From: an uncultured Actinomycetota bacterium
GTDB taxonomy: Bacteria > Actinomycetota > Actinomycetes > Mycobacteriales > Micromonosporaceae
Length of the DNA stretch: 64,000 nt
Direction: 5' to 3'
Assembly (NCBI GenBank): GCA_963837285.1
Contig: CAWIMS010000005.1
Span: forward strand, 1,844,437 to 1,908,436
The translations under genes were made by a program, and so were the position numbers. Every line of letters starts with the position of its first letter. Position 1 is the first letter of the stretch. This document shows, piece by piece, positions 1 to 43,002 of this stretch. Under the pieces are notes generated by a model that was not told the DNA's origin, made no database searches, and worked only from the letters and a program-made list of their open reading frames with translations.

Positions 1-1054
1 CGACCGCCGGTACACGTCCAACCGCAAGGCCGACACGTCCCTGCGCAGTCGCATGTTCTTTCGCCTCGCCAAGTTCAGCAAGGTCGACGAGAAGGCGCTC
101 GACGACACGTTGACCAACGTGCCCGACGATATGCACGAGCAAATGCGAAAGGCGATCAGCTACGACTTCGGCAAGCGGCGGATCACCGAGCTTCTGCCCC
201 GGATCGAGTTCTGGGTGGACAAGCTGCTCGATGACGCCGCCGCCCGCGGCCGCATCGACCTGATCGCTGACTTCTCCGCCAAACTGCCGGTCCTGGTCGT
301 CGCTGAACTGCTCGGGTTCCCGCCGCAGGACGCGCGCCAACTCCAGGACTGGTCAGACAGCTATCTGGTGCTTGTCGACCCCATGATCAAAGACGCCGGC
401 ATCGCGCGGATGAACGGCGCCTTCCGCCAGTTCGACCCTTACATCGCCGATACGTTGCGCCGAAAGCGGGCCGAGCCCGGGGACGACCTGATCACCCGGC
501 TGTTGGAGCGACACGACAACGGCGAGTTCGACGACGGCCAGCTGCGGGTCCTCATCATGATGCTCGTCATCGCCGGGCACGAGGTCATCACCAACCTCCT
601 GGGTAACGCGGTGGCCAGCCTTCTTCGATTCCCCGATCAACGCAAGCGGCTGCGCGAAGAGCCGGAGTTGATGCCGATGGCGATCGAGGAGTTCATCCGG
701 TTCGAGTCGCCGATCCAGGCGGCATGGCGCATCGCGAAAGAGGACATCGAGATCGGGGGCGTCAGGGTTCCGGCGCGACGGGCGATCACCGTGCTGATCG
801 GCGGGGCGAACAACGATCCCGATCAGTTCACGGACCCGCGTCGACTCGACGTCGGCCGCGCCGACAACCGGCACCTGGGATTCGCCCTGGGCTCGCACTA
901 CTGCGCCGGCCCCTGGCTCGCGCGGATCGAAGGGGCGGCCGCGCTGTCGCGCTTCCTGGAGCGCTTCCCGGACTTCCGCGGTGATGTGGACACCTTGAAA
1001 TGGAAGCCCGCCGCCGGTCTGCGTGGGCTCTACGAGCTGCCGCTGGCCCTGTGA
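1..1054 (+). CDS. Cytochrome P450, 5'-truncated by window edge
   Basis: The frame of ORF 53..1054 stays open back to nt 2. It has an EXXR motif (EEFIRFES) and a heme-thiolate loop FALGSHYCAG (FxxGxHxCxG) near the C-terminus. Stop TGA at 1052-1054. Confidence 0.85.
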   Translation, partial: DRRYTSNRKADTSLRSRMFFRLAKFSKVDEKALDDTLTNVPDDMHEQMRKAISYDFGKRRITELLPRIEFWVDKLLDDAAARGRIDLIADFSAKLPVLVVAELLGFPPQDARQLQDWSDSYLVLVDPMIKDAGIARMNGAFRQFDPYIADTLRRKRAEPGDDLITRLLERHDNGEFDDGQLRVLIMMLVIAGHEVITNLLGNAVASLLRFPDQRKRLREEPELMPMAIEEFIRFESPIQAAWRIAKEDIEIGGVRVPARRAITVLIGGANNDPDQFTDPRRLDVGRADNRHLGFALGSHYCAGPWLARIEGAAALSRFLERFPDFRGDVDTLKWKPAAGLRGLYELPLAL

Positions 1055-2103
1055 AAGCACTGCGTTCGGTCGCGGAGATCACGTCCGAATGGTGCTCCGC
1101 CGCCCTCGCCCGATGGATCGGTCCCGCCCGGGTGGCCGACGTGAGGGCCACTCCACTCGGCACGGGGCAGATGGCCGACACGTACCGGCTGCGCCTGAGC
1201 TACCAGCCCGCGAACGCCGGGCCGCCCACCTGCGTGGTGAAGCTCACGGCGGCTTCGTCGGCAAGCCGCACGGCCGCCAAGGTGACGCGTTCCTACGAGG
1301 TCGAGGCGCGGTTCTACCAACACCTCGCCTCGATGCTGCCGGTGCACAGCCCTCGCTGCTACGTCTCGTGCTACGACGAGCAGACCGGCGCGTTCACGTT
1401 GCTCCTCGAGGATGTCGGCGCCGGCCGCGTCGCCGACCAGATCGAGGGATGTGACCCCGGCGAGGTGGAACGTGCCGTCGATCAGCTCGCGGCGCTGCAC
1501 GGGCCGATGTGGGGAAACCCCGCACTGGCCTCGCATGCCTGGCTGCCGCGCCACGACGGCCCCGACGCCGCCTGGATGGCCTCACTGGTCCGAAGGGTCT
1601 ACCCCCGCTTCCTGCGCCGGTTCGGGGACCAGCTGAGGCCCCAGGTCGTCGACCTCCTCGATGTGTTCGTGCCGAAAGTCGAGCGGTACCTTCGTGACCG
1701 CCCCGGCCCGCGCACGGTGGTCCACGGTGACTTCCGCGCCGACAACCTTGTCGTCCACGAGGGCCACATCACCGTGCTGGACTGGCAGACCGCGGCACAC
1801 GAGCCCGCGGTCACCGATCTCTCGTACTTCCTCGGGGCCAGCGTCGACGTTCCACAGCGACGGGAGATCGAGCAGTCCGCGGTGCGGCACTACGTCAGGG
1901 CGCTGAGCAACTACGGTGTCACCCTGTCCGTCGACGACTGCTGGCGCGACTACCGCCGATACGCGTTCGGCGGCCTGTTCATGTGCATTGTCGGGTCGAC
2001 GTTGGTCGCCCAGACCGACCGTGGCGAGGACATGTTCGCAACCATGACGAACAGGCACGGCATGCACGCCATCGACCTCGACTCCAGCGCGCTTCTCCGC
2101 TGA
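1051..2103 (+). CDS. Phosphotransferase-family kinase (APH/EcKL-like)
   Basis: ORF 1000..2103. An in-frame GTG at 1051 forms a GTGA overlap with the P450 stop. The catalytic-loop-like VVHGDFRADNLVV followed by VLDWQ is typical of the aminoglycoside/ecdysteroid-kinase-like fold. Confidence 0.7.
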   Translation: MKALRSVAEITSEWCSAALARWIGPARVADVRATPLGTGQMADTYRLRLSYQPANAGPPTCVVKLTAASSASRTAAKVTRSYEVEARFYQHLASMLPVHSPRCYVSCYDEQTGAFTLLLEDVGAGRVADQIEGCDPGEVERAVDQLAALHGPMWGNPALASHAWLPRHDGPDAAWMASLVRRVYPRFLRRFGDQLRPQVVDLLDVFVPKVERYLRDRPGPRTVVHGDFRADNLVVHEGHITVLDWQTAAHEPAVTDLSYFLGASVDVPQRREIEQSAVRHYVRALSNYGVTLSVDDCWRDYRRYAFGGLFMCIVGSTLVAQTDRGEDMFATMTNRHGMHAIDLDSSALLR

Positions 2104-2112: not shown

Positions 2113-2406
2113 TCAGTCCCGACCGTCGCCCTTGCCAGCGCCCTGCCGCAACAGTTCGAGGACGAGGTCCTCGATCTCCTCGACCGTGGTGATGTGCTGT
2201 ACCTGCGCCTGGTCCAGCGGTGGGAGGTCGAACTCATCCTCCAGCGCGAAGCCCAACTCGAGCAGGGCGAGCGAGTGGTATTCGAGATGCTCGACCAGGT
2301 GGGTCGCGCTTGCCTGGACTCCGTCCGGGTTCGGCGCAACTTGCAAGATGATCGATCGGACCTTCGCCCGAACGTCCGCGTCGGCCGATTTGGCGTCAAT
2401 GCTCAT
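2113..2406 (-). CDS. Acyl carrier protein (stand-alone)
   Basis: ORF 2113..2478; the internal ATG at 2406 gives an acidic 97-aa protein. Carrier-protein helix II signature LEYHSLALLELGFALEDEF, with Ser as the putative phosphopantetheine site. Divergent from the FAAL gene. Confidence 0.65.
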   Translation of the reverse strand: MSIDAKSADADVRAKVRSIILQVAPNPDGVQASATHLVEHLEYHSLALLELGFALEDEFDLPPLDQAQVQHITTVEEIEDLVLELLRQGAGKGDGRD

Positions 2407-2584: not shown

Positions 2585-4231
2585 GTGACTACCAACCCAC
2601 TGACCTCCTGGATCGATGTGCCGGCATCATACCGAGGCATACGGTTCTGGCGGAACGATGACTGGGAGTGGCAAACATACGAGCACCTGGCCGGGTTCGC
2701 CCGCCGGATCGCCGGAGGGATTGCCGCGTCAGGCATCCGACACGACGACCGGGTTCTTGTCATCGAGCGCTCGGGACCGGAGTTCGTCGCCACGCTGTTC
2801 GGCATCATGCTCGCCGGAGCGATCCCGTGCCCGGTCGCACCGCCACAGCTCTTCCAGAGCGAGCTGCTCTATGCGCGACACCTGCACGCGATCAGCGAAG
2901 CCGCACAGCCGTCGATGGTGATCACCGCGGCCGACCTCGTGGAGCGGCTGACGTTCGGCGGCCACGAAACGCAGGTCCGCACCGCGGCTGAGCTCGCGTC
3001 CGGTGGCGAATACACCGCCGGCCGTTCGGCGAGCGCCGCCCTGCTGCAGTTCACCTCGGGATCGAGCGGACGGGTCAAGGGTGTGCGGGTGCCGGTCTCC
3101 GCCCTCGCCACCAACGTGACCGCCATCAGCACCTGGCTGGAGATGGCCGAAGGTGACGCGACCGCGTCGTGGCTGCCGGTACACCACGACATGGGGTTGA
3201 TCGGATGCCTGGTGACGCCCGTCGTCCAGCAGCGCGACCTGTGGCTGCTGGAGCCGGCCGACTTCGTCCGCGACCCGGCACGCTACCTGGCCTGCTTCAG
3301 CGCGCCCGGTGCCGTGATGACCGCGATGCCGCCGTTCGGCCTTGATTACATCGCTCGCCGGGTATCACCTGAGTCGCTTGCCGGGTCGGACTTCTCCGAC
3401 TGGCGCGCCCTCATCGTCGGCGCGGAGCGCATCGACGTCGGTGTACTGGACCGGTTCATGGCGCTGATGGGCCCGTTCGGATTCGACCGGCGCGCGCTGC
3501 TACCGGCGTACGGGCTGGCGGAGGCCAGCCTTGCCGTCACCGGACTGGCGCTCCGTGAGGAGTTCGCGACGGTTCCGGTCGCGCCGCAGCTCGTGTCGCT
3601 CGGCAAGCCGGTGACGGCGACGGGAACAGACGTCCAGCAGGTGGTCGGTTGTGGGCGTGCGTTGGACGGCGTCGCCGTTTCGGTCGTCGACGAAGCGGGT
3701 GCGCCGCTGCCGGACCGTCACGTCGGGCAGATCGTGGTGCGCGGTGACTCGGTCGCGGAGGGATACGTCCGTGCCGAAGGCGCAACGGGCCTCACCGAAT
3801 GGCGCGACGGCGCGCTCTGGACCGGCGATGCGGGCTTCATGGACGACGGACAGCTGTTCGTCATCGGGCGCCTCGGCGACGCCATGAAGGTCCGTGGACG
3901 GACGGTCTTCGCGGAGGACATCGAGAGCGCGCTGGTTGAGGCTGGTGTGCCGCGCCTCCGCGCAGCCGTCCTCCTCGGCTCGTCTGCGCGGGGCGCGACA
4001 GGTGTGGTCCTCCTCGAACGGCCTGAGGACGGTTGGATCGCGGCAGCGGCGGCCACTCTGCAACGCATCACGGAAGGCGCGTCGGTCGCGATCTTCGACG
4101 TCCCACGGCGGTCCATCTCCCGTACGACCAGCGGCAAGCCGAAGCGCCGGGAGATGTGGGCCGCCTACGTAGCCGGAACGATCGAGGGAACCGAGATCAC
4201 CGGCGTGCCGGTCACCAGCGTGGGCAACTGA
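2585..4231 (+). CDS. Fatty acyl-AMP ligase (FAAL, FadD32-like adenylating enzyme)
   Basis: ORF 2132..4231; the first ~150 aa are a Ser/Arg-rich shadow of the opposite-strand ACP gene. GTG 2585 (alt. 2576) follows GAAGGAG at 2567-2573. Adenylate-forming motifs LLQFTSGSSGRVKGVRV and WTGDAGFMDDGQLFVIGRLGDAMKVRGRTVFAEDIE. Confidence 0.8.
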   Translation: MTTNPLTSWIDVPASYRGIRFWRNDDWEWQTYEHLAGFARRIAGGIAASGIRHDDRVLVIERSGPEFVATLFGIMLAGAIPCPVAPPQLFQSELLYARHLHAISEAAQPSMVITAADLVERLTFGGHETQVRTAAELASGGEYTAGRSASAALLQFTSGSSGRVKGVRVPVSALATNVTAISTWLEMAEGDATASWLPVHHDMGLIGCLVTPVVQQRDLWLLEPADFVRDPARYLACFSAPGAVMTAMPPFGLDYIARRVSPESLAGSDFSDWRALIVGAERIDVGVLDRFMALMGPFGFDRRALLPAYGLAEASLAVTGLALREEFATVPVAPQLVSLGKPVTATGTDVQQVVGCGRALDGVAVSVVDEAGAPLPDRHVGQIVVRGDSVAEGYVRAEGATGLTEWRDGALWTGDAGFMDDGQLFVIGRLGDAMKVRGRTVFAEDIESALVEAGVPRLRAAVLLGSSARGATGVVLLERPEDGWIAAAAATLQRITEGASVAIFDVPRRSISRTTSGKPKRREMWAAYVAGTIEGTEITGVPVTSVGN

Positions 4232-4240
4232 GGGTCCTGC

Positions 4241-6634
4241 TCACTCGCCCCCACCGGCCTGGTTGTGACCATCCACGAACACCAGGCGCATTTCAGCGGT
4301 GTAGGCGTTCCCGGCGGTGTCGGCCAGCCATGACTGCTCGGGTGCGGGCAGCATCTCGCTGAATGTCACCGACGCGCCTTCGGTCTCGGCACCGGTCCGC
4401 AGGAGCTGCGCCAGGACGCCCACCTGTACCTCGCTGCGGAAGTCCACGAACACCGGCTTCGTCTCGGAACTGATCGAGGCGAACACGGTCTCCGGTATCC
4501 CCCGGTTCCGCAGCCAGCGACGGGCTGCCACGAAATGCTCGGGATCGCTGCGCGCGGACACCCAGTCCAGCTCGGCGATGGGGAACGACCAGGTCTCCCG
4601 GAACACGACCAGGTTGTCCACGACCACCCGAGGTGTGTGGTCGTGCCCGCGGACCACCTCCTTGAGCACGTCCATGATGTCGAACATCATCCTGGCGCCG
4701 TGGATGTCGGCCACGTCGAACTGCTCGGCCGCGCCGGGCAGTCCAACGACCAGCTTGTCCCCGTCACGGCGGGCTTCCAACCCGGACAGGGGGAGCTGCC
4801 GGTCGAAGCCGCGCGGCGGGTACGGGGACACGCACAGCCGCCAGTCGCGGGCGTCGTTGAGCCACGGGTAGGTCCGCGCGACCACCCTGGGGTAGCTCTT
4901 GACCGGGCTGAGCATCACCCGGCCGTCGGGGATGGCCGTGGTCAGCATGGCCCGTAGTTCCTCGGTGTCGGGATGGGCCCAGCCGAAGACCGGGGTCTCG
5001 AACGGGCAGTAGGCGACGTGGATCTCGCCGATCACCGGCTGGAACTCGCCACGCGCGAACTCCTGGGCGCCCCGCGCCGCGATGAGCATGTCGATACTGT
5101 GGATCCGGGCGTACGCCCAGCTCGGGTACGCGCCCGCGAACCTCTCCTCGACCTGCCCACGCAGCGTGTGGCTGGTGTGCGTCGTCACATGGGCGTCGGT
5201 GTCCATGCCGAGAATCGCCCGCCAGTGCGCGGCGAACTCCTTGATCAGGTGATCCAGCGGGCGGTTGCCGGGGACGAAGATCCGGTCTGCACAGGAGAGC
5301 ACGAGTTCGTTGAAACCCACCGCCTCGGTACCCATCGCGTCGAAGGCCTCCGAAAGCACGGCCCGCAGCCGCTGCGCCGCCTCATGGGCGAACCAGCGTG
5401 CGCTCGTCAGCAGCAGCGACAGCGGATCGGCGCACGACTCCAGCACCTGCGGCCCGAACGACAGGGCAAGGTCGCGGGCACATTCCACATATGTCAGGCG
5501 CCGGCCGCCATAGACCTGGCCGGGCCGCCGTGCCGGGTCGACTCCGGTCAGCTCGGTGAACTCATGCTCCAGCTGCGCGTTGAGCCTTCGGAGGTCTTCC
5601 GCGTCCTGGTAACCGGCCAGCGCGTCGCGTGCCGCTTCCAGCCGGTCGAGCACACCGGTCGCCCGGTTTCTGACTCCGGCGTCACCGATCACCGCGAGCC
5701 GCTTGCGCAGCTCCCGTTCGGCGTGCTGCACCATCGGCGGTTCCAGGTCCCACAGCAGGAGCCCCTTGGCCGCCAGCCGGTCCAGTTCCTCGTACACCGT
5801 GGCCGGCTCAGAGCCGTACTCGGCCGCTATCACCCGCGCACTACGGCGACCGTCCACGAGTGCCAACAGCCGGACCTCGTCGGCGTCGAGTTCGACGGGC
5901 CCGGCCTGAGTCCGGGCGCGGGCGCCGGAGAGGTAGACGGTGGGGTGGCGGCGAGGTGCGATCCAGGGGCGCACCTCGGGGTCGCTGGACAGGCTCGCCG
6001 CCAGCGCGTCGACGGCCCACGGCTCCAGGAAGAGCTCGCCCCGGCTGACCAGGGCCGGGCCTGGCTTCATCCGCAGCGGCTCGCCGTCGGAGCGGAAATC
6101 GAACCAGCTCACCGGGCCGAAGAACCCGATCGTCTCGTTCTTCGCGCAGTACCGGGCCCAGTACTTGGCCACGATCCGCTGCCGCTTGCGCAGCCGCTGG
6201 TTGTTCGGAGCGTCCGGGCCCATCTGCCCGAGCCCGACGATCATGGGTTCGACAAGGTCGGGGTTCTGCCAGGTCACGGCCTCCAGGAAGTCGGCGCGCC
6301 GGGCGATCCGGCTGAGCAGCTCGGCCTGCCGCGCCGCGCCACGGGCGACCGCGGCGTCCAGTGCCTGGCGGGTGCTGTCACCGGGGTCGTCCAGCCAGCG
6401 GTCCACGGCCGCGGCGTAGCTGGCGTCACCGAGTTCGAGAAGGCCGCCGATGGGGAACCCGGCGCTTCGGAGCGCGCCCTGCGACCAGAGGTGGAAGCCG
6501 CCGGGGAGCGGGATGAAGGTACCGGGCGCGAGGGCGGCACTCGCGGGCGCGGAGGACCGCAGGCGGGCGGCTGGTCCTTGGGCTGTACTTGTGGGGTCTG
6601 CTGTTGCATCGACGATTAATTCGGCGTCGGTCAC
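4241..6634 (-). CDS. Small LanB-like protein (lantibiotic dehydratase N-terminal family, no elimination domain); possible PEARL-type enzyme
   Basis: ORF 4241..7030. GTG 6634 is preceded by GGAG (cttGGAGtccagGTG); the upstream part of the ORF overlaps the P450 gene and is not protein-like. LanB-N-like blocks FLEAVTWQNPDL and YCAKNETIGFFGPVSWFDF. It lacks the RYxxGGPHxRxR block that defines LanB C-terminal domains. Confidence 0.75.
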   Translation of the reverse strand: MTDAELIVDATADPTSTAQGPAARLRSSAPASAALAPGTFIPLPGGFHLWSQGALRSAGFPIGGLLELGDASYAAAVDRWLDDPGDSTRQALDAAVARGAARQAELLSRIARRADFLEAVTWQNPDLVEPMIVGLGQMGPDAPNNQRLRKRQRIVAKYWARYCAKNETIGFFGPVSWFDFRSDGEPLRMKPGPALVSRGELFLEPWAVDALAASLSSDPEVRPWIAPRRHPTVYLSGARARTQAGPVELDADEVRLLALVDGRRSARVIAAEYGSEPATVYEELDRLAAKGLLLWDLEPPMVQHAERELRKRLAVIGDAGVRNRATGVLDRLEAARDALAGYQDAEDLRRLNAQLEHEFTELTGVDPARRPGQVYGGRRLTYVECARDLALSFGPQVLESCADPLSLLLTSARWFAHEAAQRLRAVLSEAFDAMGTEAVGFNELVLSCADRIFVPGNRPLDHLIKEFAAHWRAILGMDTDAHVTTHTSHTLRGQVEERFAGAYPSWAYARIHSIDMLIAARGAQEFARGEFQPVIGEIHVAYCPFETPVFGWAHPDTEELRAMLTTAIPDGRVMLSPVKSYPRVVARTYPWLNDARDWRLCVSPYPPRGFDRQLPLSGLEARRDGDKLVVGLPGAAEQFDVADIHGARMMFDIMDVLKEVVRGHDHTPRVVVDNLVVFRETWSFPIAELDWVSARSDPEHFVAARRWLRNRGIPETVFASISSETKPVFVDFRSEVQVGVLAQLLRTGAETEGASVTFSEMLPAPEQSWLADTAGNAYTAEMRLVFVDGHNQAGGGE

Positions 6635-6813
6635 CTGGACTCCAAGTTCGCGTGGTCTGGAAAGGCCCAGGCAGCCGAACCGGAGGCTTGTGGTGCATGC
6701 GCAGCCCACGCTGACGCCGAGTGCCCGGGCAAGCACGTTCTTGGGGCGGAGTCGGTGGAATAGGACAGTGCCACCAGCAGGTAGGGCGCCGGCCGCGTTA
6801 GTGCGAGTTTCAC
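6631..6813 (-). CDS. Candidate 60-codon ORF (possible scaffold/precursor peptide); very uncertain
   Basis: Track ORF 6631..6813 with a GTG start. Its TGA overlaps the predicted small-LanB GTG start (GTGA). No clear RBS, and third-position GC is lower than in neighbouring genes. Confidence 0.2.
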   Translation of the reverse strand: MKLALTRPAPYLLVALSYSTDSAPRTCLPGHSASAWAAHAPQASGSAAWAFPDHANLESR

Positions 6814-6870
6814 ACGTAGGCAGGGAGTTGGGTAGCCGGACGACTGCCCGATCGCGCACTTGTAACCCAG

Positions 6871-8064
6871 CTACGCCGGGGTCACCCGGATCGGTACGCT
6901 GGAGTATGTACGGAAACTCGGGCTGTGCCGGCGCACGGCCGGCCCGTCGGGTTCCATGCGTGCGAAATGGCGGGCTACGAACCGCAGTACCGATGCCGTC
7001 TCGGCCCGGGCCAGCGCCGCGCCGAGACACACGTGGATCCCCCCGCCCCCGAAACTGAGGTGCGGATTCGGGTGTCGGGTCAGATCCAGCTCACTCGGTC
7101 GCTCGAAGCGATCTTCATCGTGGTTTGCCGAGCCCAGGTGCAGGATGAGCACCCGTCCGGGCCGGATCGCGCGATCGCCGATCTTGACCGGCTGATGCAC
7201 CAGCCTGCTCTTCACCTGCACGGGAGCGTCGAACCTCAGCAACTCTTCGACCGCTCTGGGGGCCAGCTCAGGATCGGCGCGCAGGATCGCCACCTGGTCC
7301 GGGCGGGCCGCGAGCGCCGCAAAGCCGTTTCCGAGCAGGTCGGTCGTTGTCGAGAAACCAGCAAATAGCAGGAATACGACATTGTCGATAAGAGCCTGTC
7401 GACCGGCTGTCGTCTCCTCGACACCACACAAGCGAGAAACGACATCGTCGCCGGGGCTGCGCTGCTTCGCTTCGAAGAGGGTGGTGACCTTGTTCTGCAT
7501 CCACTCCAGCGCCGCGGTGGTCTCCGCTCGCTCGTCTTCCGGGAGATAGGTCGCGAAGGCCTGCGACAGAACTCTCGCCCGGGGGCGTACCTCGTCAAGG
7601 TTCTCCCGGTCCATCCCCACGAAGTCCGCCAGCACCCGGATCGGTAGCTTGTCCGCCAGGTCGGTCACCGCGTCGAACCGACCTTCGTCGACGGCCGGGG
7701 CGAGCAGCTCGTCGACCATCGAATCGACGCGCCGCTGCCGCTCCCGCACCGCGCGCGGGGTGAACTCACTCATGAAGAGACGGCGCAACACCGTGTGCGC
7801 CGGAGGGTCACGGTTCAACATGACGTGTCCGAAGAAATCCGACAGGGGTCCGTCGCCCATGGCGATCCGGTGGTACTCCTCGTCGAACTCGGCGCCGAGG
7901 CGGGCATCGTTGTTCATCGCGGCCACGTCGGCGTATCTCATCACGACCCACTGCGCCGGGCCGCCTCGGCAGAGCGGTCCGGCTTCGCGGAATTTCTGGT
8001 AGATGGGATAGGGGTCTTCGACCGAAGCGAGATCCAACGCGTCGTACTTCGGCGGCAAACTCAC
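6871..8064 (-). CDS. Cytochrome P450
   Basis: ORF 6871..8130. GTG 8064 is preceded by GAAGGAGGAGG. Heme loop FGGGGIHVCLGAALAR and EXXR motif (EELLRFDA). Confidence 0.85.
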   Translation of the reverse strand: MSLPPKYDALDLASVEDPYPIYQKFREAGPLCRGGPAQWVVMRYADVAAMNNDARLGAEFDEEYHRIAMGDGPLSDFFGHVMLNRDPPAHTVLRRLFMSEFTPRAVRERQRRVDSMVDELLAPAVDEGRFDAVTDLADKLPIRVLADFVGMDRENLDEVRPRARVLSQAFATYLPEDERAETTAALEWMQNKVTTLFEAKQRSPGDDVVSRLCGVEETTAGRQALIDNVVFLLFAGFSTTTDLLGNGFAALAARPDQVAILRADPELAPRAVEELLRFDAPVQVKSRLVHQPVKIGDRAIRPGRVLILHLGSANHDEDRFERPSELDLTRHPNPHLSFGGGGIHVCLGAALARAETASVLRFVARHFARMEPDGPAVRRHSPSFRTYSSVPIRVTPA

Positions 8065-8107: not shown

Positions 8108-8893
8108 TCACGCGGGCAGCTCACCGTCATCGCCCAGGTGCGCCGCCGCGGCCTGGAGGACCGCGTCGCGCTGCGCGATGAGGTAGAAGTGCCCTCCCGG
8201 AAAGATGTGGAGCGTCATGGGTCCGGCGGTCACGTCGGTCCACGGCTGCATATCGTCCGGCTTCACGTCGGGGTCGTCGTCGCCGACCAACGCCACGACG
8301 GGGGTGGTCAACCGTCCTGGCGACGGCCGGTAGCGGGCGACCGCGCGGTAGTCGCTGCGAAGCCCGGCGAGTACGACGTCGCGTACCTCTGGCCTGTCGA
8401 TCAGGGCCGCCGGCGTGGCGCCCAGCCGCCGCAGCTCGCCGATGAGCGCCTGGTCGGTGAACTCCCTCAGGCCGTTCCGGAGTGGACGGCTCGGTGCAGG
8501 ATGGCTCGACAGGAACGTGGCGACCGGTCGGATACCCAGCGCCTCCAGCCGTAGTGCGGTCTCGAACGCCACGACCGCACCCATGCTGTGACCCAGCAGT
8601 GCGACCCGGCGGGCGGGCGCCGACCATTCCTGGGCACGCAGGGCCTTGACGACACCGTCGGCGAGCCGGTGCACGTCGTCGACGCAGGGCTCGCGTAGCC
8701 GGTCGAGCCGCCCAGGGTACTGCACGGCGGTCAGCTCGACCGTGGTCGGCAGCAGCCGGCCCCACGAGCGAAAGAACGAGGCCGAGCCACCGGCGTGTGG
8801 AAACGCCAGCAGGGCTGTGCGCGCGCGTGGACGAGGATGGGCGCAATGCAGCCAGGCGCCGCTCGCGTAGCGCTGGCTGTTGCGCGGACTCAT
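8108..8893 (-). CDS. Type II thioesterase (alpha/beta hydrolase)
   Basis: ORF 8108..9022. ATG 8893 forms an ATGA overlap with the upstream stop. LLAFPHAGGSASFF and the nucleophile elbow GHSMG are typical of NRPS/PKS editing thioesterases. Confidence 0.85.
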   Translation of the reverse strand: MSPRNSQRYASGAWLHCAHPRPRARTALLAFPHAGGSASFFRSWGRLLPTTVELTAVQYPGRLDRLREPCVDDVHRLADGVVKALRAQEWSAPARRVALLGHSMGAVVAFETALRLEALGIRPVATFLSSHPAPSRPLRNGLREFTDQALIGELRRLGATPAALIDRPEVRDVVLAGLRSDYRAVARYRPSPGRLTTPVVALVGDDDPDVKPDDMQPWTDVTAGPMTLHIFPGGHFYLIAQRDAVLQAAAAHLGDDGELPA

Positions 8894-9960
8894 AGCGCGC
8901 CTTCCTCCATGTCCGCCTCCGCGAGCCCCTGCGCACCCGCCGGCACGCGGGACACCGGTCGGGCATCGAACAACCGGAACCCGGTCACGGCGTCGGCGGT
9001 CAGCAGCTTCTCCTTGGCCCACGCGGGATCGAGCACATCGGCGGCGAAATGCACGCCCGGCGGGACCGCGCCCTCGATCACGGCCAGCCCGGTCATCGCC
9101 GCGGTCGCTCCGGTCAGCTCGCTGGAGCCCTTGCCCAACAGGACCATCGTCGGCATCGTCGGCTCACCGTGTGCCTGGAACACCAGCCGCTGGTACCGCG
9201 TACGCCCGAAGAGGTCGAGCTCGCTGGCCCTGACCACCGCCTCCGCGTCCACCGAATCGGTATGGGTCGCGGCCAACGTCTGGCGCAGCCGAGCGCCGGG
9301 GAAGACGGTGTAGTAAACCAGTTCTGCCAGATCGAGGTGACGTGCCAGCCGTTCCATCTCGGGGCTCAGGTAGGGCACGCCACTCGCTGGCTCGGTGAAG
9401 TACGGGACCTCCCCGTCGATGGCGGGCACGCCGGCCCGCTCCACCCGGGAGCCGTTGCGCCACACGGCGAAGGTCCGGCCGGCCGAGCCGTCCACCGCGG
9501 CCAGATAGTCGGCCGCCGCGCCGAGCGAGAACCGATCCTGCCCGCCGACGTAGCAGACCAGGCGACTGCCCCGCTCCCCCACGAGTTGTCGTGGCAGCAA
9601 GCCGGTCAGGCCGGGCAACATGCCGGCCGAGAGCACGACCGGCTTCGCACGGGCGCGGCCCGACAACAGATCGTGGACCGGCTCGTCTCCGCCCGGGTCG
9701 ACGTAGGCCACGCCGTTGGCTGTCGCCGCGTCCGCCACCATTGCCCGGATCGCCGGCGACGACGCGGTGCAGTTGATGACCAGCCGTAGCGACGCGTAGA
9801 ACCGCTCGAACGTGGCCGGTTCGTTGATGTCGACCACGACGTCCGCCTTCGCCGGGTCCCGGCCGGCGACCACGATCGGTCCCAGTCCCCAGGCCCGTAG
9901 CTGCGCGACCGTCTCGCGGCCAACGGATCCGTATCCACCGATGACGCCGATCGCGGTCAT
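8890..9960 (-). CDS. Saccharopine-dehydrogenase-like NAD(P)-binding oxidoreductase
   Basis: N-terminal Rossmann motif IGVIGGYGSVGRETV. ATGA overlaps with the NRPS stop (9957-9960) and with the TE start (8890-8893). The family assignment rests on overall pattern only. Confidence 0.6.
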   Translation of the reverse strand: MTAIGVIGGYGSVGRETVAQLRAWGLGPIVVAGRDPAKADVVVDINEPATFERFYASLRLVINCTASSPAIRAMVADAATANGVAYVDPGGDEPVHDLLSGRARAKPVVLSAGMLPGLTGLLPRQLVGERGSRLVCYVGGQDRFSLGAAADYLAAVDGSAGRTFAVWRNGSRVERAGVPAIDGEVPYFTEPASGVPYLSPEMERLARHLDLAELVYYTVFPGARLRQTLAATHTDSVDAEAVVRASELDLFGRTRYQRLVFQAHGEPTMPTMVLLGKGSSELTGATAAMTGLAVIEGAVPPGVHFAADVLDPAWAKEKLLTADAVTGFRLFDARPVSRVPAGAQGLAEADMEEGAL

Positions 9961-12900
9961 GGGCCGTCTCGTAGTTGCGCGGCGAGAGCCATGATGGATG
10001 GACCCTCCAGGAGCACTCGGAGCAGGGTGTTGAAGGTCAGCGGCGCCGCCTCGGGGACCTGCTCGATCAATTGACCGGCCAGCTGGGACGCGAGCAGAGA
10101 GTCTCCACCGAGCTCGTAGAACCCCTGGGAGCGTCCCACCGCCGGCAGGTTGAGAACCTCCCGGTACAGGACCGCTATCCGCCGCTCGAGATCGTCGAGC
10201 GGCTCGTCGGCCGCCGGCTCCGCGACTCTGGCCGACCGAGGGATCAGATTACTCAGCCTGTCCCGGTCGACCTTGCCGTTGGCGGTCAGCGGAAGGTGAT
10301 CCACGATCTGCACCACGCTGGGCACCATCACGGCCGGCAACCGCTTTGCGGCGGCGTCGATGATCTGCTGCGGCCGTAGCGACACGCGATCGGTCTTGAC
10401 CTGGCTGCCGTACACATAGAGCCCGATCTTGGTGAAGACGTCGTGCTCCCCGGGAAGTGCCAACACCAACTCGTCGCCGAGCAGCGTGACCCAGTCCTGG
10501 TGCGACACGAACGTCTGGTCCCGGCCGTGTCTCATGTCGGCGAAGTCCTCGGCGCGGCCGTCGGTGAGCAACAGTTCCATCGAGGTCATGATCTGGTAGT
10601 GGTCGCGCGTCATCTCCGCGAACAACAGCCATCCGCCCGGAGCCAGCAGCTCGCGCAGCGCCGCGACGGTGCGACCGACGTGCTTCGTCGCGTGGAAGAC
10701 GTCGCCCAGGACGATGGCATCGAACGAGTTGGGCGAGAATCCCTGCGCGCGGAAGTCGGTGTCGATGTCGAGGGTCGCATAGTGCACCCAGGGGAATTCC
10801 CCGAACGCCTCCTTGGCCCGGTTGAGGAAGAACTGGGAAAGGTCCGTGAACACGTACTCCACGTCGAGGTCGGCCAGCGCCGGGATGACGTCCATGCTGG
10901 TCCCGCCGACGCCGGCGCCGACCTCGAGAACGCGGAACGGCTTCGAACTATTCTTGGCAATGGTGCCGATCGACGCCGCGAGGATCGTGTTGGCCCAGCG
11001 GTTGAAGAGGGTCACGTTGTACAGCGACTCGCCGATGTCCACCCGCCCTTCGGGGAACAGCAGCTGCACCGCGTCGGCCCCTTCGCTTCGGAGCACCTCC
11101 AGCAGACTCCCGGTGCACGCCTTGAAGTAGTCGTGGACCTTCGCCGAACCGGGATCCAGGCGCATGACCAGGTCGTCGACCTCGCGCCAGGCCGCCGCGA
11201 CCGCGGACTGCTCGACCTGGAGCTCCGCGCGGTAGCGGTTGGTGTCCTCCTGGACCAGCAGGCTGTGATCGGTCAGCGCTCGAACCCAGCGGCGTACCAC
11301 GCGGTGGTGCCGTGACGGAGCCTGGGTCTGCGCGATTATCTGTTCCAGCGAATGCGTGTCTCGCGGGTGCTGGAACAGACCGCTGCGCTGGAACGCCTGC
11401 AACATGCTCAGCAACGCGATGTCGTCGAGCCGCCGGAGGTAGCCGACGTACTGTTCACGATCGACGCCCGCGGTGCTCTGGTCGGCGACCGCGTTGGCAG
11501 CCTCGGTCACAACGGCCGCGAGCTCGGTGACGCCATGGTCGGCCTGGGCGCCCGGCTCGATGAACGCCACCAGCCGTCGATCCGATCGCGAGGAATCGTC
11601 GACGATCACGGCCGCGTTGGCGACCTGCGAATCGGCGACCAGTGCCGCCTCGACCTCGGCCAGCTCGATCCGATGGCCCCGAATCTTGACCTGATTGTCC
11701 TCCCGGCCAAGGAACTCGATGTTCCCGTCCGGCAGGTAGCGGCCGAGATCGCCGGTGCGGTAGAGCCGCTCGCCGGTGCGGGGATGCTGGACGAACCGCT
11801 CCGCCGTGCGTACCGGATCGCCCAGGTAGCCTTTGGCGACGCCCGCGCCCCCGATGTAGATCTCACCCGTGACACCGTCGGGGCATTCCTGCCATCGCTG
11901 GTCGAGCACGTACATCTGCTGGTTCGACAACGGCTTGCCGTACGGAATGCTGCGCCACTGCTCGTCGACCGCGTCGATCGGGTAGAAGATCGACCAGATC
12001 GACCCTTCGGTCGCGCCGCCCAGGCTGACCAACTCGATGTCAGGAACGAAGCGACGGATCCGCTCCGGCAGGTTCACCGGGATCCAGTCGCCGGACAGCA
12101 GCGCGAGACGCAATGACGAAACGTCGGCGGTCGGCGCCGTCGACAGGAAGTCGACCATCATCTGCAGGTGAGCCGGCACCGAGTTCCACAGTGTCACCCG
12201 ATGCGCAGCGATCAGCTCGGCCCAGTGTGACGGCATGCCCCGCTGGTCGTGGTCGGGCACGACCAGACAGCCGCCGACGGCGAGTGGCCCGAACATGTCG
12301 TAGACCGACAGGTCGAAACCGAGGTTGGTCAACCCGAGGATCCTGTCCTCCGCGTCGACGCCGAACCGCCGGTTCACGTCCTCCACCGTGTTCAGCGCAC
12401 CGCGGTGGCTGATCTGGACGCCCTTCGGCGAGCCGGTGGAACCGGACGTGTAGATGACGTATGCCATGTCCGGGGTGGGCCGCGCCAGCGCATCCCGGCA
12501 GAACGACGCGAGGTCCACGTCCGTCTCGCGTCCGACCGACTCCTCGATGGTGACCACGTGCACTGCTTCTGGCCAGGACATCCCGTCGCGGAGGTGCTTT
12601 TGGGTCACCACGGTCGTGACGCCGGCGTCGGCGAGCATACCGTCGCGCCGCACGGTTGGCTGATTGGTATCGATGGGCAGATAGGGTGCGCCGGCGAGCA
12701 GGACGCCGAGCACGCCGATGAGCTGGTCGGGGCCGCGATCGGCGATCACCGCGATCGGTGCGGTGGGATGAACTCCCCGGTCCGCCAACTCGATGGCGAG
12801 ACTCGCCGCCCGGCGCAGCAGCACATCGTAGGTCAGTGTCCCCCAGGAGCCGGCCATGGCAGGAAGTTGAGGTGTCCGCAGGGCCTGCTGGACAACGGGC

Positions 12901-14510
12901 TCATGGAGCAGCCGGTGCCCGGGCAGGTCGCGGCTGACAGTCGCATTCGCGTCGCGGCGACGCTCCGCTTGCGTGGCCGGCAGCGCCACGAGCGCCGGCT
13001 GATCCCAGCAGTCGCTTTCATCCGCCAGGCGGTGAAGCAACTGTTCGAAGGCCGCGAACATGTCTTCGACCAGCCCGTCGGGGAAGATTCCCTCCCGGAC
13101 ATCCCAGTTGACGAGCAATGCCTCGTTGGCTACCAGCGCCTGACAGTCGATCCACACCTGTGGGGTCTGGGTCAGCCCGTGTACCAGAGTGGCGTCCCGC
13201 CAGAACTCCGGCTCGCGGTTGTCGAGCGCGATGGCGCTGGTGTACACGATCGGCATCAGCGCGTCGGCCCGGCCTCGGCGCGACCCGAGTTCACGCAACA
13301 CCTCGACACCGGAGCAGGCCATGTTGTCCATGTCCGCCCACAACTGCTCCTGCAGCGCGCGGGCGCCCTCGGTGAAGGTGGCCTCCGCACGCGGCCGCAC
13401 CTCGAGCAGGTCGACCGAGGTGAAGTCCCCGACGAGCAGATCAACCCTTTCGTGTACCGGCAGCCGGCTGAGCATGGTGACGCCGAGCGTGAAGCCGTCC
13501 TGCGACGTCCAGCGGTTGACCGTCTCCGCGTAGGCGGCGAGCACGGCACCCGACGGCGTCAGTCCATGGCGCGCGGTCAGGTCCTGCAGCCGCCGCCACT
13601 GCGCCGGGGCCAGTCGTGTTTCCCACCGGCGGAAGGCGGCGTGACCGCGCTTCTGCGGGTCGGTCCGCACCGGCAGCTTCGGCGCCGTCGGCAGGTCGTC
13701 GATCCGCCGCCACCAGTAGTCGCGCGCCCGGCGGTACCCGCGTCGATCCTTCAGCCGCTGCTGGGCCGCCAGGTAGTCGCGGAACGTGACGTCCAGCGCC
13801 GGCAACGGTTGGTCGGGAGCGTGGCAGAGCTGATGCAACTCGTCCAGCAGCAGTTGGACGCTCATGAAGTCGGCGACCAGCAGGTCGAACGAGAGGTGAA
13901 GCACCGATCGCTCGGGCGTCAACGACAACCTCACGTCGAACATCGGCCAACTGCCGGGCTGGTACGTGCGACGACACATCTGGTCACGAACCGCCGCCAC
14001 CTCGTCCGCCGCCCGGGCGGTGGGCTCGGGGCGAAGGTCCAGGACGGGCATCTCAAACTCGGGAGTGCTGTCCAGGACCTGCTGGAACCCGCGCTCGTCG
14101 ACCACCGCGCGCAGCATCGGGTGCCGTCCGATCAGCTTCTGCCAGGCCGCCGACAGCCGCTGCGGTTCCGCATCGGTGAGGTCGGCTTCCAGATAGACCT
14201 GGCACCCCACGCCTCCGTAGTCCAGACCATCGCTTCGTCCCAGCAGATAAGCGGTCTGCACGTCGGTGAGCGGGAACGGATCGGTGGCGTGGTCCGGCTC
14301 GGCCACGAGCAGGTTCGAGTCGACCTCGTCCTGCAGGTACTCGAGCAACGCCGACCGCTGCCGTCGCAACTCCTCCCGGTCCTCGTCGCCCAGCGCGCCG
14401 CGAGGCGCGCGGAACCGCAACTGACCGTCAGCCGCCCACAGCTGCACGCCGGCCGCCTCCAGCCGGTCGACCAGTTCGGCGGGGTGCGTATCTGCCATCT
14501 GCTCTGTCAC
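9957..14510 (-). CDS. NRPS, single module: TubC-type N-terminal docking domain - Cy - A (Cys code, embedded SAM methyltransferase) - PCP
   Basis: 1517 aa. Docking-like LEAAGVQLWAADGQLRFRAP (aa ~15-40). Cy motifs FPLTDVQTAYLLGR and DLLVAD (DxxxxD, aa 209-214). A motifs YVIYTSGSTGSPKGV, GEIYIGGAGVAKGYLGD, YRTGDLGRY, GREDNQVKIRGHRIELAEVE. The code read by eye, DLYNLSLIWK, indicates Cys. MT motif I VLEVGAGVGG (aa 1194-1203) lies between A8 and A9/A10 (LPAVMVP, NGKVDR). PCP motif FYELGGDSL (Ser1471). Confidence 0.95.
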   Translation of the reverse strand: MTEQMADTHPAELVDRLEAAGVQLWAADGQLRFRAPRGALGDEDREELRRQRSALLEYLQDEVDSNLLVAEPDHATDPFPLTDVQTAYLLGRSDGLDYGGVGCQVYLEADLTDAEPQRLSAAWQKLIGRHPMLRAVVDERGFQQVLDSTPEFEMPVLDLRPEPTARAADEVAAVRDQMCRRTYQPGSWPMFDVRLSLTPERSVLHLSFDLLVADFMSVQLLLDELHQLCHAPDQPLPALDVTFRDYLAAQQRLKDRRGYRRARDYWWRRIDDLPTAPKLPVRTDPQKRGHAAFRRWETRLAPAQWRRLQDLTARHGLTPSGAVLAAYAETVNRWTSQDGFTLGVTMLSRLPVHERVDLLVGDFTSVDLLEVRPRAEATFTEGARALQEQLWADMDNMACSGVEVLRELGSRRGRADALMPIVYTSAIALDNREPEFWRDATLVHGLTQTPQVWIDCQALVANEALLVNWDVREGIFPDGLVEDMFAAFEQLLHRLADESDCWDQPALVALPATQAERRRDANATVSRDLPGHRLLHEPVVQQALRTPQLPAMAGSWGTLTYDVLLRRAASLAIELADRGVHPTAPIAVIADRGPDQLIGVLGVLLAGAPYLPIDTNQPTVRRDGMLADAGVTTVVTQKHLRDGMSWPEAVHVVTIEESVGRETDVDLASFCRDALARPTPDMAYVIYTSGSTGSPKGVQISHRGALNTVEDVNRRFGVDAEDRILGLTNLGFDLSVYDMFGPLAVGGCLVVPDHDQRGMPSHWAELIAAHRVTLWNSVPAHLQMMVDFLSTAPTADVSSLRLALLSGDWIPVNLPERIRRFVPDIELVSLGGATEGSIWSIFYPIDAVDEQWRSIPYGKPLSNQQMYVLDQRWQECPDGVTGEIYIGGAGVAKGYLGDPVRTAERFVQHPRTGERLYRTGDLGRYLPDGNIEFLGREDNQVKIRGHRIELAEVEAALVADSQVANAAVIVDDSSRSDRRLVAFIEPGAQADHGVTELAAVVTEAANAVADQSTAGVDREQYVGYLRRLDDIALLSMLQAFQRSGLFQHPRDTHSLEQIIAQTQAPSRHHRVVRRWVRALTDHSLLVQEDTNRYRAELQVEQSAVAAAWREVDDLVMRLDPGSAKVHDYFKACTGSLLEVLRSEGADAVQLLFPEGRVDIGESLYNVTLFNRWANTILAASIGTIAKNSSKPFRVLEVGAGVGGTSMDVIPALADLDVEYVFTDLSQFFLNRAKEAFGEFPWVHYATLDIDTDFRAQGFSPNSFDAIVLGDVFHATKHVGRTVAALRELLAPGGWLLFAEMTRDHYQIMTSMELLLTDGRAEDFADMRHGRDQTFVSHQDWVTLLGDELVLALPGEHDVFTKIGLYVYGSQVKTDRVSLRPQQIIDAAAKRLPAVMVPSVVQIVDHLPLTANGKVDRDRLSNLIPRSARVAEPAADEPLDDLERRIAVLYREVLNLPAVGRSQGFYELGGDSLLASQLAGQLIEQVPEAAPLTFNTLLRVLLEGPSIMALAAQLRDGP

Positions 14511-14845
14511 ACCCCTCCCTCCTCGACGAGATCACTGTCAGGCAGCGGCTCTCGAACGTTGTCCACGGTCACGAGGAGCTTGGCGACAGTAGGCGTCTCG
14601 AGCAACTGGTACATAGGGATCTCCACCCCCAAGGTTCTCCGTGCCTCCCGGGCGAATCTGGTCGCCGGCAGGCTGTCACCACCGAGAGCAAAGAAGCTCC
14701 GTGTCCGCAAGGTCAGCAGTTTGTCGTGCTCGTTGTTGTGCTCGTTTCTGCGGGCTGAGGCAGTACACTCATCGGTTCGCTTCTCGTGGTGCCCACCAGC
14801 GACAAGGTCGTTGCCACGATGGCGTGAGCAGACACGCGGCCGCAA
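14507..14845 (-). CDS. Small PCP-like carrier protein, atypical/degenerate N-terminus
   Basis: The FFALGGDSLPATRF carrier motif is intact. The stop overlaps the NRPS GTG start (GTGA at 14507-14510). The region before the motif (NEHNNEHDKLLTLRT) is short and A/T-ending codons are unusually frequent. Acidic C-terminal tail PLPDSDLVEEGGV. Confidence 0.5.
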   Translation of the reverse strand: MRPRVCSRHRGNDLVAGGHHEKRTDECTASARRNEHNNEHDKLLTLRTRSFFALGGDSLPATRFAREARRTLGVEIPMYQLLETPTVAKLLVTVDNVREPLPDSDLVEEGGV

Positions 14846-15082
14846 GCGGTCGCGTTGGCCTACCGAGGGTTTCGCCGGTTGTCGCTCGGGAACCGCAGGC
14901 AGGACACGACTCGCACCCTCGCCCCGGAGCCGAGGCCTAAAGTAGCGTCCTGACGGAGAGCACTCCAGAGGACGAGCGCCGGTGTCCGAGTGAGGAAGTC
15001 GCGCAGTTGGTCGGCAGCCTCTGGGCGTCCCGGCCTAGATCCCGTATGCCAGGGTTCCGACGACAGATGGGGACGGACACCG

Positions 15083-15913
15083 GTGGGTGATCTGGAGGAA
15101 GACACTGCGGTCGAGCGTGTCGGCGATGGCCGCTACCGGGCCACCATCTCCTCCGATTGGGCACTGTGGGGGCCGGTCGGTGGATACCTCGCCAGTATCG
15201 CGCTGCGCGCTGCCGGCGCGCATTCGGCTCTGCCGCTGCCGGCGAGCCTGAGTTGCCAGTACCTCTCGCGGGCACGCTTCGACGTCGTCGACATCGAGGT
15301 GGATCGCCAACGCACGTCGCGCAGCGCGGAGTCGCTGACCGTGCTGATGAGGCAGCGCGGCACTCCCGTGATGAGCGCGCAGATCTGGGCGATCGCTGAC
15401 GACATCAAGGGTCCTGAACGGCGGCTTTCGTGCCCGCCGGTTGTGCCGGCGCCGGAGCAGCTCGCCGAGATCGTGCTCGACCCGGATCTCGCCGCGACCA
15501 GGACCGCGACCGCGGCCACGGCCACCGGAACGTTCTGGAAGAACCTCGAGCTGAGGTGGGTGGAGGACCAGAGCCGGTCCGAGGAGCTTCAGATCCACAG
15601 CTGGGTGAAGTTTCGGCCACGGGCGTACTTCAACGACCCGTGGGTGGACGCGTGCCGGGAGCTGATCAGTATCGACACAGCGATCCTGCCGGCGGCCGCG
15701 TGGGCGTTGGCCGGCGACAGGTTCGTCGCCCCCAGCATCGATCTCTATGTCGCGTTCCATTCGCCGCCGCCCCCCGAGGACTACCTGCTCGTGACGGCCC
15801 GAGGCACCGCCGCGGGGGCCGGGTTGGTCAGCGGCACAGCACAGACGCGATCCGTCGACGGCACCCTCACGGCGAGCGGTGGATCCCAGCTCCTCTGCCG
15901 GATGCTGGCGTGA
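15083..15913 (+). CDS. Acyl-CoA thioesterase II-like (double hot-dog, TesB-like) protein
   Basis: ORF 14990..15913. The pattern YRATISSDWALWGPVGGYLASIALRAA ... SLSCQYLSRARFDVVDIEV resembles the TesB/4HBT_3 family. The start is uncertain (14990 ATG or GTG 15083). Confidence 0.55.
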   Translation: MGDLEEDTAVERVGDGRYRATISSDWALWGPVGGYLASIALRAAGAHSALPLPASLSCQYLSRARFDVVDIEVDRQRTSRSAESLTVLMRQRGTPVMSAQIWAIADDIKGPERRLSCPPVVPAPEQLAEIVLDPDLAATRTATAATATGTFWKNLELRWVEDQSRSEELQIHSWVKFRPRAYFNDPWVDACRELISIDTAILPAAAWALAGDRFVAPSIDLYVAFHSPPPPEDYLLVTARGTAAGAGLVSGTAQTRSVDGTLTASGGSQLLCRMLA

Positions 15914-19233: not shown

Positions 19234-19242
19234 GGACAGTAG

Positions 19243-19282
19243 CCGTTCGGGCCCAGGCCGTCCCCGGCCTGGGCCCGAACGG
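19243..19282 (+). terminator. Intrinsic-terminator-like hairpin (18-bp perfect stem, 4-nt loop)
   Basis: CCGTTCGGGCCCAGGCCG-TCCC-CGGCCTGGGCCCGAACGG begins 10 nt after the P450 TAA. There is no U-tract, as is common in actinobacteria. Confidence 0.6.
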
Positions 19283-19587
19283 GCTGCCTGCCTAGAAGTG
19301 CGGCGGATGCGGTGCCGAGACCCGCCACGACTCCACAGTGGTGGGAATGTTGCGGGTCACCGGGCCGGTGGTGCGACGACCTCCGTCGGACGTCTTCAGC
19401 GGGCATCATCCCCCGTGATGTGACCACTCTCAGCCTCCCCGTGTGACTTTGACCAGCGCCATTCGCCGATCAAGAATCCCAGGCCGGCCGTAGTCGGGCA
19501 ATCGCCCCGACAGTTGTCAATACCCCTTGAGGGAACGCAGAGAAAACCCAGCCACCACAACGCTCCGGGCCGGATGTCAATCGGAAT

Positions 19588-22359: not shown

Positions 22360-22372
22360 GACGCCTCCGTTC

Positions 22373-23440: not shown

Positions 23441-23462
23441 GAAGACAGGCTGTCATCGGCGG

Positions 23463-24539: not shown

Positions 24540-24641
24540 GTCTTTTCACCGCGGCCCACGGTACGGGCGGCACGAAAGCCTTGCAATCGCACGCTATCCG
24601 CCCTCCAGCCGGCCTTCAGATCCGCTCGTCAGGCTGATGGA

Positions 24642-25547: not shown

Positions 25548-25563
25548 CGGGCGCGGTCCCGCG

Positions 25564-26499: not shown

Positions 26500-26512
26500 G
26501 CTGCTCGTCCTC

Positions 26513-27298: not shown

Positions 27299-27308
27299 GT
27301 CTCCTCCT

Positions 27309-27563: not shown

Positions 27564-27604
27564 GTCGGACTCCCCTCACACTGTTCTTCCCGGCGGTTCG
27601 GCAC

Positions 27605-43001: not shown

Positions 43002-43002
43002 G

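Follow-up and report, generated by a model that had tools for sequence, protein, structure and literature searches.

We analysed a 64,000-nucleotide stretch of DNA (the window) from an uncultured Actinomycetota bacterium of the Micromonosporaceae (GCA_963837285.1, contig CAWIMS010000005.1, positions 1,844,437 to 1,908,436), and in particular the gene at 4241–6634 on the minus strand, which encodes a 797-aa protein with a LanB-type domain (here the small LanB). We observed that this protein has the LanB glutamylation-type fold, carries the motifs of peptide aminoacyl-tRNA ligases (PEARLs), lacks any elimination partner, and is encoded next to a nonribosomal peptide synthetase (NRPS) cassette, a co-location that is conserved. 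Judged from its sequence features, the small LanB is probably a PEARL-like amide ligase of the SnaE type working for the NRPS pathway next to it. Most likely it belongs, as a member not yet characterised, to the class of NRPS-associated PEARLs first described in 2024, and is not a new kind of system.

An earlier note on this DNA had described a 797-aa protein with LanB N-terminal-like blocks, and the open reading frame (ORF) proved to be real. It begins with a GTG at 6634, with GGAG just before it; the next in-frame start upstream, at 7030, would overlap a cytochrome P450 gene. The orthologues are 775–812 aa long, so the 797-aa product fits, and an identical protein is called in public assemblies (P0001). 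The GC content of the window is ∼69%. The Pfam search matched PF04738 (Lant_dehydr_N) only, in two stretches (96.2 bits; cutoff 28), and the described blocks, FLEAVTWQNPDL and YCAKNETIGFFGP, begin at residues 116 and 162, respectively. PF14028, the elimination domain family, was not found in the protein by Pfam. An NCBIfam search of the protein gave nothing meaningful, and a single-sequence phmmer search against PDB chains gave no relevant match; the profile built from 32 sequences of the family reached TbtB and GodF.

The AlphaFold2 model of the small LanB, built on 32 homologues, had a mean pLDDT of 91 and a pTM of 0.90. In the Foldseek search of this model against the PDB, the only significant matches were LanB glutamylation domains, namely those of TbtB, MibB, MadB, GodF and NisB (E values from 1e-18 to 1e-24). 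The best match was TbtB (E 4.5e-24, TM 0.62); the alignment with this split LanB covered the full lengths of both proteins (TM 0.62/0.62). The query-normalised TM values were 0.54–0.65 and those normalised to the full-length LanBs were 0.50–0.53, the latter being consistent with a protein that lacks the elimination domain. A cryptic elimination domain was rejected because of this TM pattern and the missing PF14028 match. The small LanB therefore consists of the glutamylation-type fold only, without a fused elimination domain. Within this fold, a winged helix resembling PqqD and the RiPP recognition element (RRE; RiPP, ribosomally synthesised and post-translationally modified peptide) was located at residues ∼232–296 (window ∼5747–5941) by a profile match (E 0.01) and local Foldseek matches to PqqD. 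One homologue (P0083) is annotated as PqqD.

Next, we compared the motifs of the small LanB with those of the known PEARLs and dehydratases. The alignment in Fig. S12 of Yu & van der Donk (ACS Cent Sci 2024, PMC11212132) separates these two groups. Dehydratases have the tRNA-binding motif RxxxR[ST]TPFG and a C-terminal block without Arg, whereas PEARLs and SnaE have QRxxxKN[DE]T and a C-terminal E-x-R (E[IL]R) that is required for carboxylate phosphorylation (PMC11212132). The Glu-x-Arg pairs are E801/R803 in TglB and E813/R815 in BhaB7. In the small LanB, both RYCAKNETIGFF and the C-terminal E781-x-R783 are motifs of the PEARL/SnaE type. Its tRNA-binding motif is YWARYCAKNETIGFF, and its C-terminal block, which contains E781 and R783, is YTAEMRLVFV. 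In the block ARYCAKNETIGFF around the tRNA motif, Y158, R161 and K165 are invariant in the family and are putative tRNA-binding residues. E781-M-R783 is invariant in 32/32 homologues; the Arg is absent from TbtB, NisB and MibB, and also from the LanB-N protein of a thiopeptide-type cluster located elsewhere in the window (42736–45642). The latter has RAAAKTSPLTTF and RVVELVVEL, is of the TbtB type, and its C-terminal block is almost identical to that of TbtB. The two LanB-N proteins of the window thus fall on opposite sides in the block alignment, the small LanB with the PEARLs and the thiopeptide protein with the dehydratases, which serves as an internal control for the PEARL assignment. An hhalign comparison of the family profile with the thiopeptide LanB-N aligned the N-terminal third only.

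The comparison with characterised PEARLs was made over two short published blocks. Scored against these fragments, the hidden Markov model (HMM) of the small LanB family gave 56.8 and 24.2 bits for SnaE, 32–35 bits for BhaB7, BhaB5 and TglB, and ≤5.5 bits for the dehydratases. The residues of BhaB7/TglB reported to contact ATP/Mg and the tRNA CCA end are R34, Y205/R208, Y426/R429, D558, E575/H577, R715, F755, K763 and E813/R815. Their putative counterparts in the small LanB, invariant or nearly so in the 32 homologues, are R56, Y158/R161, Y375/R378, D515, E537/H539, R679, F718, K726 and E781/R783. The order of the two sets is the same and the spacing nearly so, the mapping being by spacing only outside the two aligned blocks. 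Among these, D515, E537, H539, R679, F718, K726, E781 and R783 are putative ATP or acyl-phosphate residues.

Three Streptosporangiaceae genomes, those of Microtetraspora malaysiensis, Nonomuraea mangrovi and Nonomuraea sp. NPDC050536, share this gene neighbourhood, with 67–82% identity across the cassette proteins, and the small LanB itself is 67–72% identical to its close orthologues there. In these three genomes, the small LanB gene lies directly upstream of the same NRPS (1,508–1,517 aa, 74–78% identity), which is followed by the oxidoreductase, P450, fatty acyl-AMP ligase (FAAL), acyl carrier protein (ACP) and kinase genes at 68–81% identity. No thiopeptide or type II polyketide synthase (PKS) genes were found within 10 kb of these three cassettes.

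The wider family (32–37% identity) has at least 588 matches, counting one genome per species. We searched 83 family loci by tblastn with the window proteins in a 10-kb range. An adenylation domain was present at 70/83 loci and a ketosynthase at 34/83, and a PF14028-like gene or a YcaO gene at none (0/83 for each) within this range. Fusions of an N-terminal type II thioesterase (TEII) to the small LanB were observed in 15 of the 120 best homologues (e.g. P0037, P0039, P0041 and P0045), and a fusion to MbtH in one (P0044); such fusion genes adjoin NRPS genes, lying directly upstream of them (loci L004 and L088). The conserved synteny together with the adenylation domain, PF14028 and YcaO counts indicates that the small LanB gene goes with NRPS chemistry, not with the thiopeptide cluster, and a link to the latter was rejected on synteny, on motifs and because the thiopeptide set is self-contained. 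At three loci (L041, L072 and L075), another small LanB paralogue was seen in the 10-kb range, as extra tblastn matches with the C-terminal fragment of SnaE.

The closest known system is that of SnaE (ADD43711.1), a PEARL-like enzyme of the threopeptin NRPS–PKS cluster of Stackebrandtia nassauensis, which adds Thr to the free carboxylate of an NRPS product; a broader class of NRPS-associated PEARLs was predicted in the same work (PMC11212132). Like the small LanB, SnaE is annotated as a lantibiotic dehydratase, has a PF04738-type domain only, and is encoded with an NRPS and without a scaffold peptide gene. The two proteins share the motifs EAVxWQNP, RYxxKN[DE]TIGFF and QxWL...YTxExR, and the SnaE fragments are the top scorers among the published fragments against the family HMM. 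The context of the small LanB is also SnaE-like, with NRPS/PKS genes nearby and no RiPP precursor found. The systems differ in that the acceptor carboxylate of SnaE arises from a ureido-forming C domain (EHHxxHDG) of an Arg-Arg NRPS–PKS. The NRPS beside the small LanB lacks such a domain and is a single Cy-A(Cys)-MT-PCP module (cyclisation, adenylation, methyltransferase and peptidyl carrier protein domains) primed by a FAAL and an ACP. The other partners are also different, and comprise a TesB-like thioesterase, P450s and a kinase.

PEARLs acting on small molecules are also known from sinefungin biosynthesis, where SinB2 requires the kinase SinF for substrate recognition (bioRxiv 10.64898/2026.05.21.726688). 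The acceptor of SinB1 and SinB2 is a nucleoside-amino acid and no NRPS is involved, whereas the small LanB is encoded beside an NRPS. The presence of a pathway kinase in both systems is an analogy only.

It had been suggested in the earlier note that a pairing of aminoacyl-tRNA chemistry with FAAL/NRPS thiazoline assembly was undescribed. The PEARL-type motifs and the conserved synteny of the cassette support the pairing itself, but not its novelty, as SnaE was published in 2024 together with the prediction of a broader class, and small-molecule PEARLs were reported in 2026. SnaE is, however, the only characterised NRPS-associated PEARL, yet relatives of the small LanB are very common and mostly lie beside NRPS or PKS genes. 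A description of the present FAAL/Cy-type cassette was not found in the literature searched. The small LanB is a well-defined, conserved candidate for a second type of NRPS–PEARL partnership, with a compact gene set kept in four genomes. As the cassette has no ureido-forming domain, it would be a test of whether ordinary NRPS acids, once released, are also extended by PEARLs. The motifs also provide markers by which genes labelled 'lantibiotic dehydratase' in NRPS clusters can be re-annotated, KN[DE]T with a C-terminal E-x-R as opposed to [ST][ST]P without the Arg, and both marker types occur in this same window.

We then examined the genes of the cassette in the window. The NRPS (9957–14510, minus strand) comprises a TubC-type N-terminal docking domain, a Cy domain with the motif DLLVADFMS in place of HHxxxDG, an A domain with the A4 motif FDLSVYD and other residues of the Cys code, an embedded methyltransferase and a PCP. 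It ends in this PCP, with no thioesterase domain and no downstream module. A stand-alone PCP gene (14507–14845, minus strand) is directly upstream of it, and beyond that is the gene of a TesB-like (4HBT_3) thioesterase (14990–15913, plus strand), a homologue of which lies close to the small LanB gene at each of the close orthologous loci examined. On the other side, the NRPS gene is translationally coupled to that of an NAD(P)-binding oxidoreductase (8890–9960, minus strand; 68–77% identity in the orthologous cassettes), followed by a type II thioesterase gene (PF00975; 8108–9022, minus strand) that is absent from the three orthologous cassettes, and by a P450 gene (6871–8130, minus strand; 74–76% identity in L003, L005 and L007). 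The small LanB gene is convergent with the gene of a fatty acyl-AMP ligase-like adenylating enzyme (2585–4231, plus strand; 71–75% identity), whose best NCBIfam match is the FAAL subfamily (313 bits), and the two stop codons are 9 bp apart. An ACP gene with the motif LEYHSLALLEL (2113–2400, minus strand; 78–81% identity) lies between the FAAL gene and that of an APH/EcKL-family kinase (1051–2103, plus strand; 73–77% identity). The ACP gene was not in the gene list of the earlier note. In NCBIfam, the kinase resembles LxmK, a kinase of class V lanthipeptides, but only weakly and far below the threshold (E 1.9e-7).

This gene order, with the small LanB gene co-oriented with and downstream of the PCP, NRPS, oxidoreductase, TEII and P450 genes, had been correctly noted earlier. 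Its description as the last gene of an operon was not borne out. A gap of 236 bp (6635–6870) separates the P450 stop codon from the small LanB start, so operon membership is not established, and the last position is particular to the source genome: the three orthologous cassettes begin with this gene, which there lies directly upstream of the NRPS. The gap contained neither a conserved small ORF nor a consensus promoter or terminator; a promoter/terminator scan of 4000–7200 detected no promoter, and its single terminator-like site, within the small LanB gene, is at chance level. The 'reductase' of the earlier description corresponds to the oxidoreductase at 8890–9960, the label of which comes from a weak Sacchrp_dh_NADP match only; this protein had no NCBIfam match and its PDB sequence search was empty. 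Its assignment as a PchG-type thiazolinyl reductase is unsupported by these searches, and we infer a role as thiazoline reducer only provisionally.

From this gene set, the following pathway may be proposed. The FAAL-like enzyme would charge the ACP with an acyl or aryl acid, whose condensation with cysteine on the Cy-A(Cys)-MT-PCP module would yield a thiazoline or thiazolidine thioester, methylated and possibly reduced. Because the NRPS has neither a thioesterase domain nor a further module, a trans-acting thioesterase, either the TEII, which is a candidate for this role, or the TesB-like enzyme, would free the carboxylic acid. The small LanB would then phosphorylate a free carboxylate of this small-molecule intermediate using ATP, as proposed for SnaE. 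The amine of an aminoacyl-tRNA would attack the acyl phosphate and the tRNA ester would be hydrolysed, by which one amino acid would be added outside the assembly line. The thioesterase–small LanB fusions seen elsewhere in the family fit such a 'release, then extend' logic. Catalysis by the small LanB, the identity of the acceptor carboxylate, the amino acid added and the order of the steps are all inferred.

Several observations weigh against a SnaE-type function in this pathway. The NRPS has a Cy domain and not the ureido-forming C domain that makes the acceptor carboxylate of SnaE, so that the origin of the free carboxylate is assumed. The orthologues of Plantactinospora (72% identity) and Planotetraspora (55%) have no Cy-NRPS within 10 kb, and the acceptor may therefore be not the thiazoline acid but another acid that these pathways share; what the two loci retain are P450s, the TesB-like thioesterase, an ABC transporter, a protein of the glyoxalase fold and stand-alone C and PCP proteins, with a stand-alone A domain also present at the Plantactinospora locus. 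The place of the small LanB gene in the cassette varies between genomes, and here it is set apart by the 236-bp gap. The Gln of the PEARL 'QR' motif, which precedes R161, is Ala or Thr in the subclade of the small LanB. The assignment of D515, E537 and H539 was made by spacing, as the alignment to PEARLs extends over two short blocks only. The RRE/PqqD-like domain is kept with no evident peptide substrate, and could mean that the substrate is a peptide or a protein. A 41%-identical relative in Sphaerimonospora mesophila (P0032; L087, 10001–12313) sits among housekeeping genes with no NRPS nearby; it keeps the PEARL-type motifs, and its neighbours are pdxS/pdxT, yebC, a GNAT acetyltransferase gene, ruvCAB, secDF and relA.

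A more specific form of the SnaE-type reading concerns the subclade of the small LanB (≥55% identity, Streptosporangiaceae and Micromonosporaceae). Its members have the Gln-to-Ala/Thr change in the QR motif and are always near a TesB-like thioesterase and P450s. We tentatively suggest, as a possibility that we rate well below the general SnaE-type assignment, that this subclade is a post-assembly-line extension device, in which an NRPS acid with a thiazoline or thiazolidine heterocycle, freed by a trans-acting thioesterase, would be extended from an aminoacyl-tRNA in place of a terminal C-A-T module. Recognition of the substrate might fall to the retained RRE-like domain or to the conserved kinase. 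If true, the subclade would hold the first example of a PEARL whose acceptor is the ordinary C-terminal carboxylate of a non-ribosomal product after release, and not a chain-reversed ureido acid.

The PEARL-type motifs, and the fact that the PEARLs characterised before 2024 all use scaffold peptides, would also suit a classical RiPP-type enzyme (pearlin biosynthesis), which lengthens a ribosomal scaffold peptide at its C-terminus and whose amino-acid-derived product is fed to, or decorated by, the NRPS enzymes. The retained winged helix and the PqqD annotation of P0083 point the same way. The RiPP PEARLs TglB, AmmB2/B3, BhaB1, BhaB5 and BhaB7 resemble the small LanB in having the LanB-N fold without an elimination domain, the R/K motif for tRNA binding and the C-terminal E-x-R. 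However, they act on scaffold peptides encoded nearby, none of which was found in window 1–21 kb, and their fragments score below those of SnaE against the family HMM. The small non-genic ORFs of this 21-kb region gave no convincing match in the orthologous loci. The lone tblastn match (ORF 19098–19427, in L002 and L006) is off-frame at the edge of a P450 gene, the sole unannotated small gene in the cassette is that of the ACP, and an 87-aa ORF in a Nonomuraea locus (L085) has no match in the window. SnaE and SinB1/SinB2 show that scaffold-free PEARLs exist, and we consider a pearlin-type function unlikely. The suggestion in the earlier note that this could be a PEARL-type small LanB is supported in that the elimination domain is missing and the motifs are of the PEARL and not the dehydratase type, while its picture of scaffold-peptide extension does not fit, no conserved small ORF having been found in window 1–21 kb.

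The small LanB could also use the LanB-N scaffold for other aminoacyl-tRNA chemistry on the NRPS product, such as the formation of a stable ester or amide at an amine or hydroxyl group with no activation of a carboxylate, or a Gly-tRNA-dependent amination of the AmmB3/BhaB5 type. PEARL relatives are known to add a Gly-derived nitrogen to an oxidised indole, the P450s are conserved partners, and genes of a tryptophan dioxygenase and an HpaB-type oxygenase are present in the Nonomuraea and Microtetraspora orthologous loci. All the residues that the mapping above links to carboxylate phosphorylation are, however, invariant, and an oxidised aromatic acceptor has no direct support in the window, which makes this explanation about as improbable as the scaffold-peptide one.

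The upstream regions (1–10 kb) of these Nonomuraea and Microtetraspora cassettes (L003 and L085) encode, besides the tryptophan 2,3-dioxygenase and the HpaB-type oxygenase, an A-PCP didomain, a NovG-like regulator, an O-methyltransferase and two TesB-like thioesterases, which suggests that a building block derives from tryptophan. The window, the left edge of which may cut the cassette short, did not show these extra genes.

It is very improbable that the small LanB is instead the glutamylating half of a split LanB dehydratase, an extra thiopeptide dehydratase working in trans with the PF14028 protein at 38923–39954 or 48925–50454: it shares the fold of TbtB, and two PF14028 genes and a thiopeptide precursor (core SFVLPPLLCCSCYCC) are present in the same window, but the thiopeptide set has its own TbtB-type LanB-N with dehydratase motifs, the small LanB lacks these motifs and has the PEARL E-x-R, the two are 32 kb apart with a type II PKS cluster in between, and the 83 family loci have no PF14028-like or YcaO gene in the 10-kb range, the orthologous cassettes likewise being free of thiopeptide genes. 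TbtB and the thiopeptide LanB-N have the KP motif in common with the small LanB, as well as the Arg and Phe that stack on adenine; they differ from it in having KTSP and VELVVEL, no Arg of the E-x-R pair, PF14028 partners, a YcaO protein and a precursor peptide. As to the objection raised earlier, that the gene might be part of a conventional lanthipeptide system encoded nearby, no PF14028 gene or precursor adjoins it; the nearest PF14028 gene is 32 kb away, within the self-contained thiopeptide set.

Codon 6 of the small LanB gene is indeed a TTA (6617–6619, minus strand), as had been noted, and is one of 4 TTA codons in ∼18,800 codons of the window ORFs. It was absent from 4/4 orthologues checked, and no tRNA genes were found in the window. 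Conserved bldA control was rejected, as the codon is not kept, and the case for bldA-type control is weak also because the closest relatives are Streptosporangiaceae and Micromonosporaceae and not Streptomyces; such control of the small LanB is speculation. Two of the four TTA codons lie in the thiopeptide region (49076–49078 and 50110–50112, both plus strand). The ORF boundaries around them are loosely defined, and the former sits in the overlap of two ORFs.

The complete thiopeptide-type gene set extends over 37019–51182. It comprises genes for a YcaO protein (37019–38938, minus strand), a PF14028 protein (38923–39954, minus strand), an ocin_ThiF-like protein (40180–41424), the TbtB-type LanB-N (PF04738), another ocin_ThiF-like protein with a weak YcaO match (46829–49333) and a second PF14028 protein (48925–50454), as well as two nitroreductase-type dehydrogenases and a deacetylase. 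Both LanB-C-like proteins had been credited with a GPHxRxR motif; both are PF14028 proteins, but the motif is exact only in the one at 38.9 kb (GPHIRLR), the other having GPHVRIP. The likely precursor peptide (...MPVDKAFADALEDLTLEPLGVEGDSWEDSLTAGYSMPEVGA/SFVLPPLLCCSCYCC) is encoded at 39959–40138 on the minus strand, inside an ORF at 39959–40309. It was recognised by reading the intergenic region; a crude scan for Ser/Cys/Thr-rich tails returned off-frame ORFs only. The spacing of its core, Ser1...Cys9-Cys10-Ser11-Cys12, recalls the cores of thiomuracin and GE2270. Unusually, core residues 2–8 (FVLPPLL) are devoid of Cys, Ser and Thr.

The type II PKS cluster (22060–34841) separates the thiopeptide set from the NRPS cassette. 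It encodes a KS-alpha, a chain length factor (CLF), an ACP, a ketoreductase, a cyclase, a SnoaL-like protein and a flavin halogenase, together with luciferase-like and ABM monooxygenases and a metallo-beta-lactamase-fold protein.

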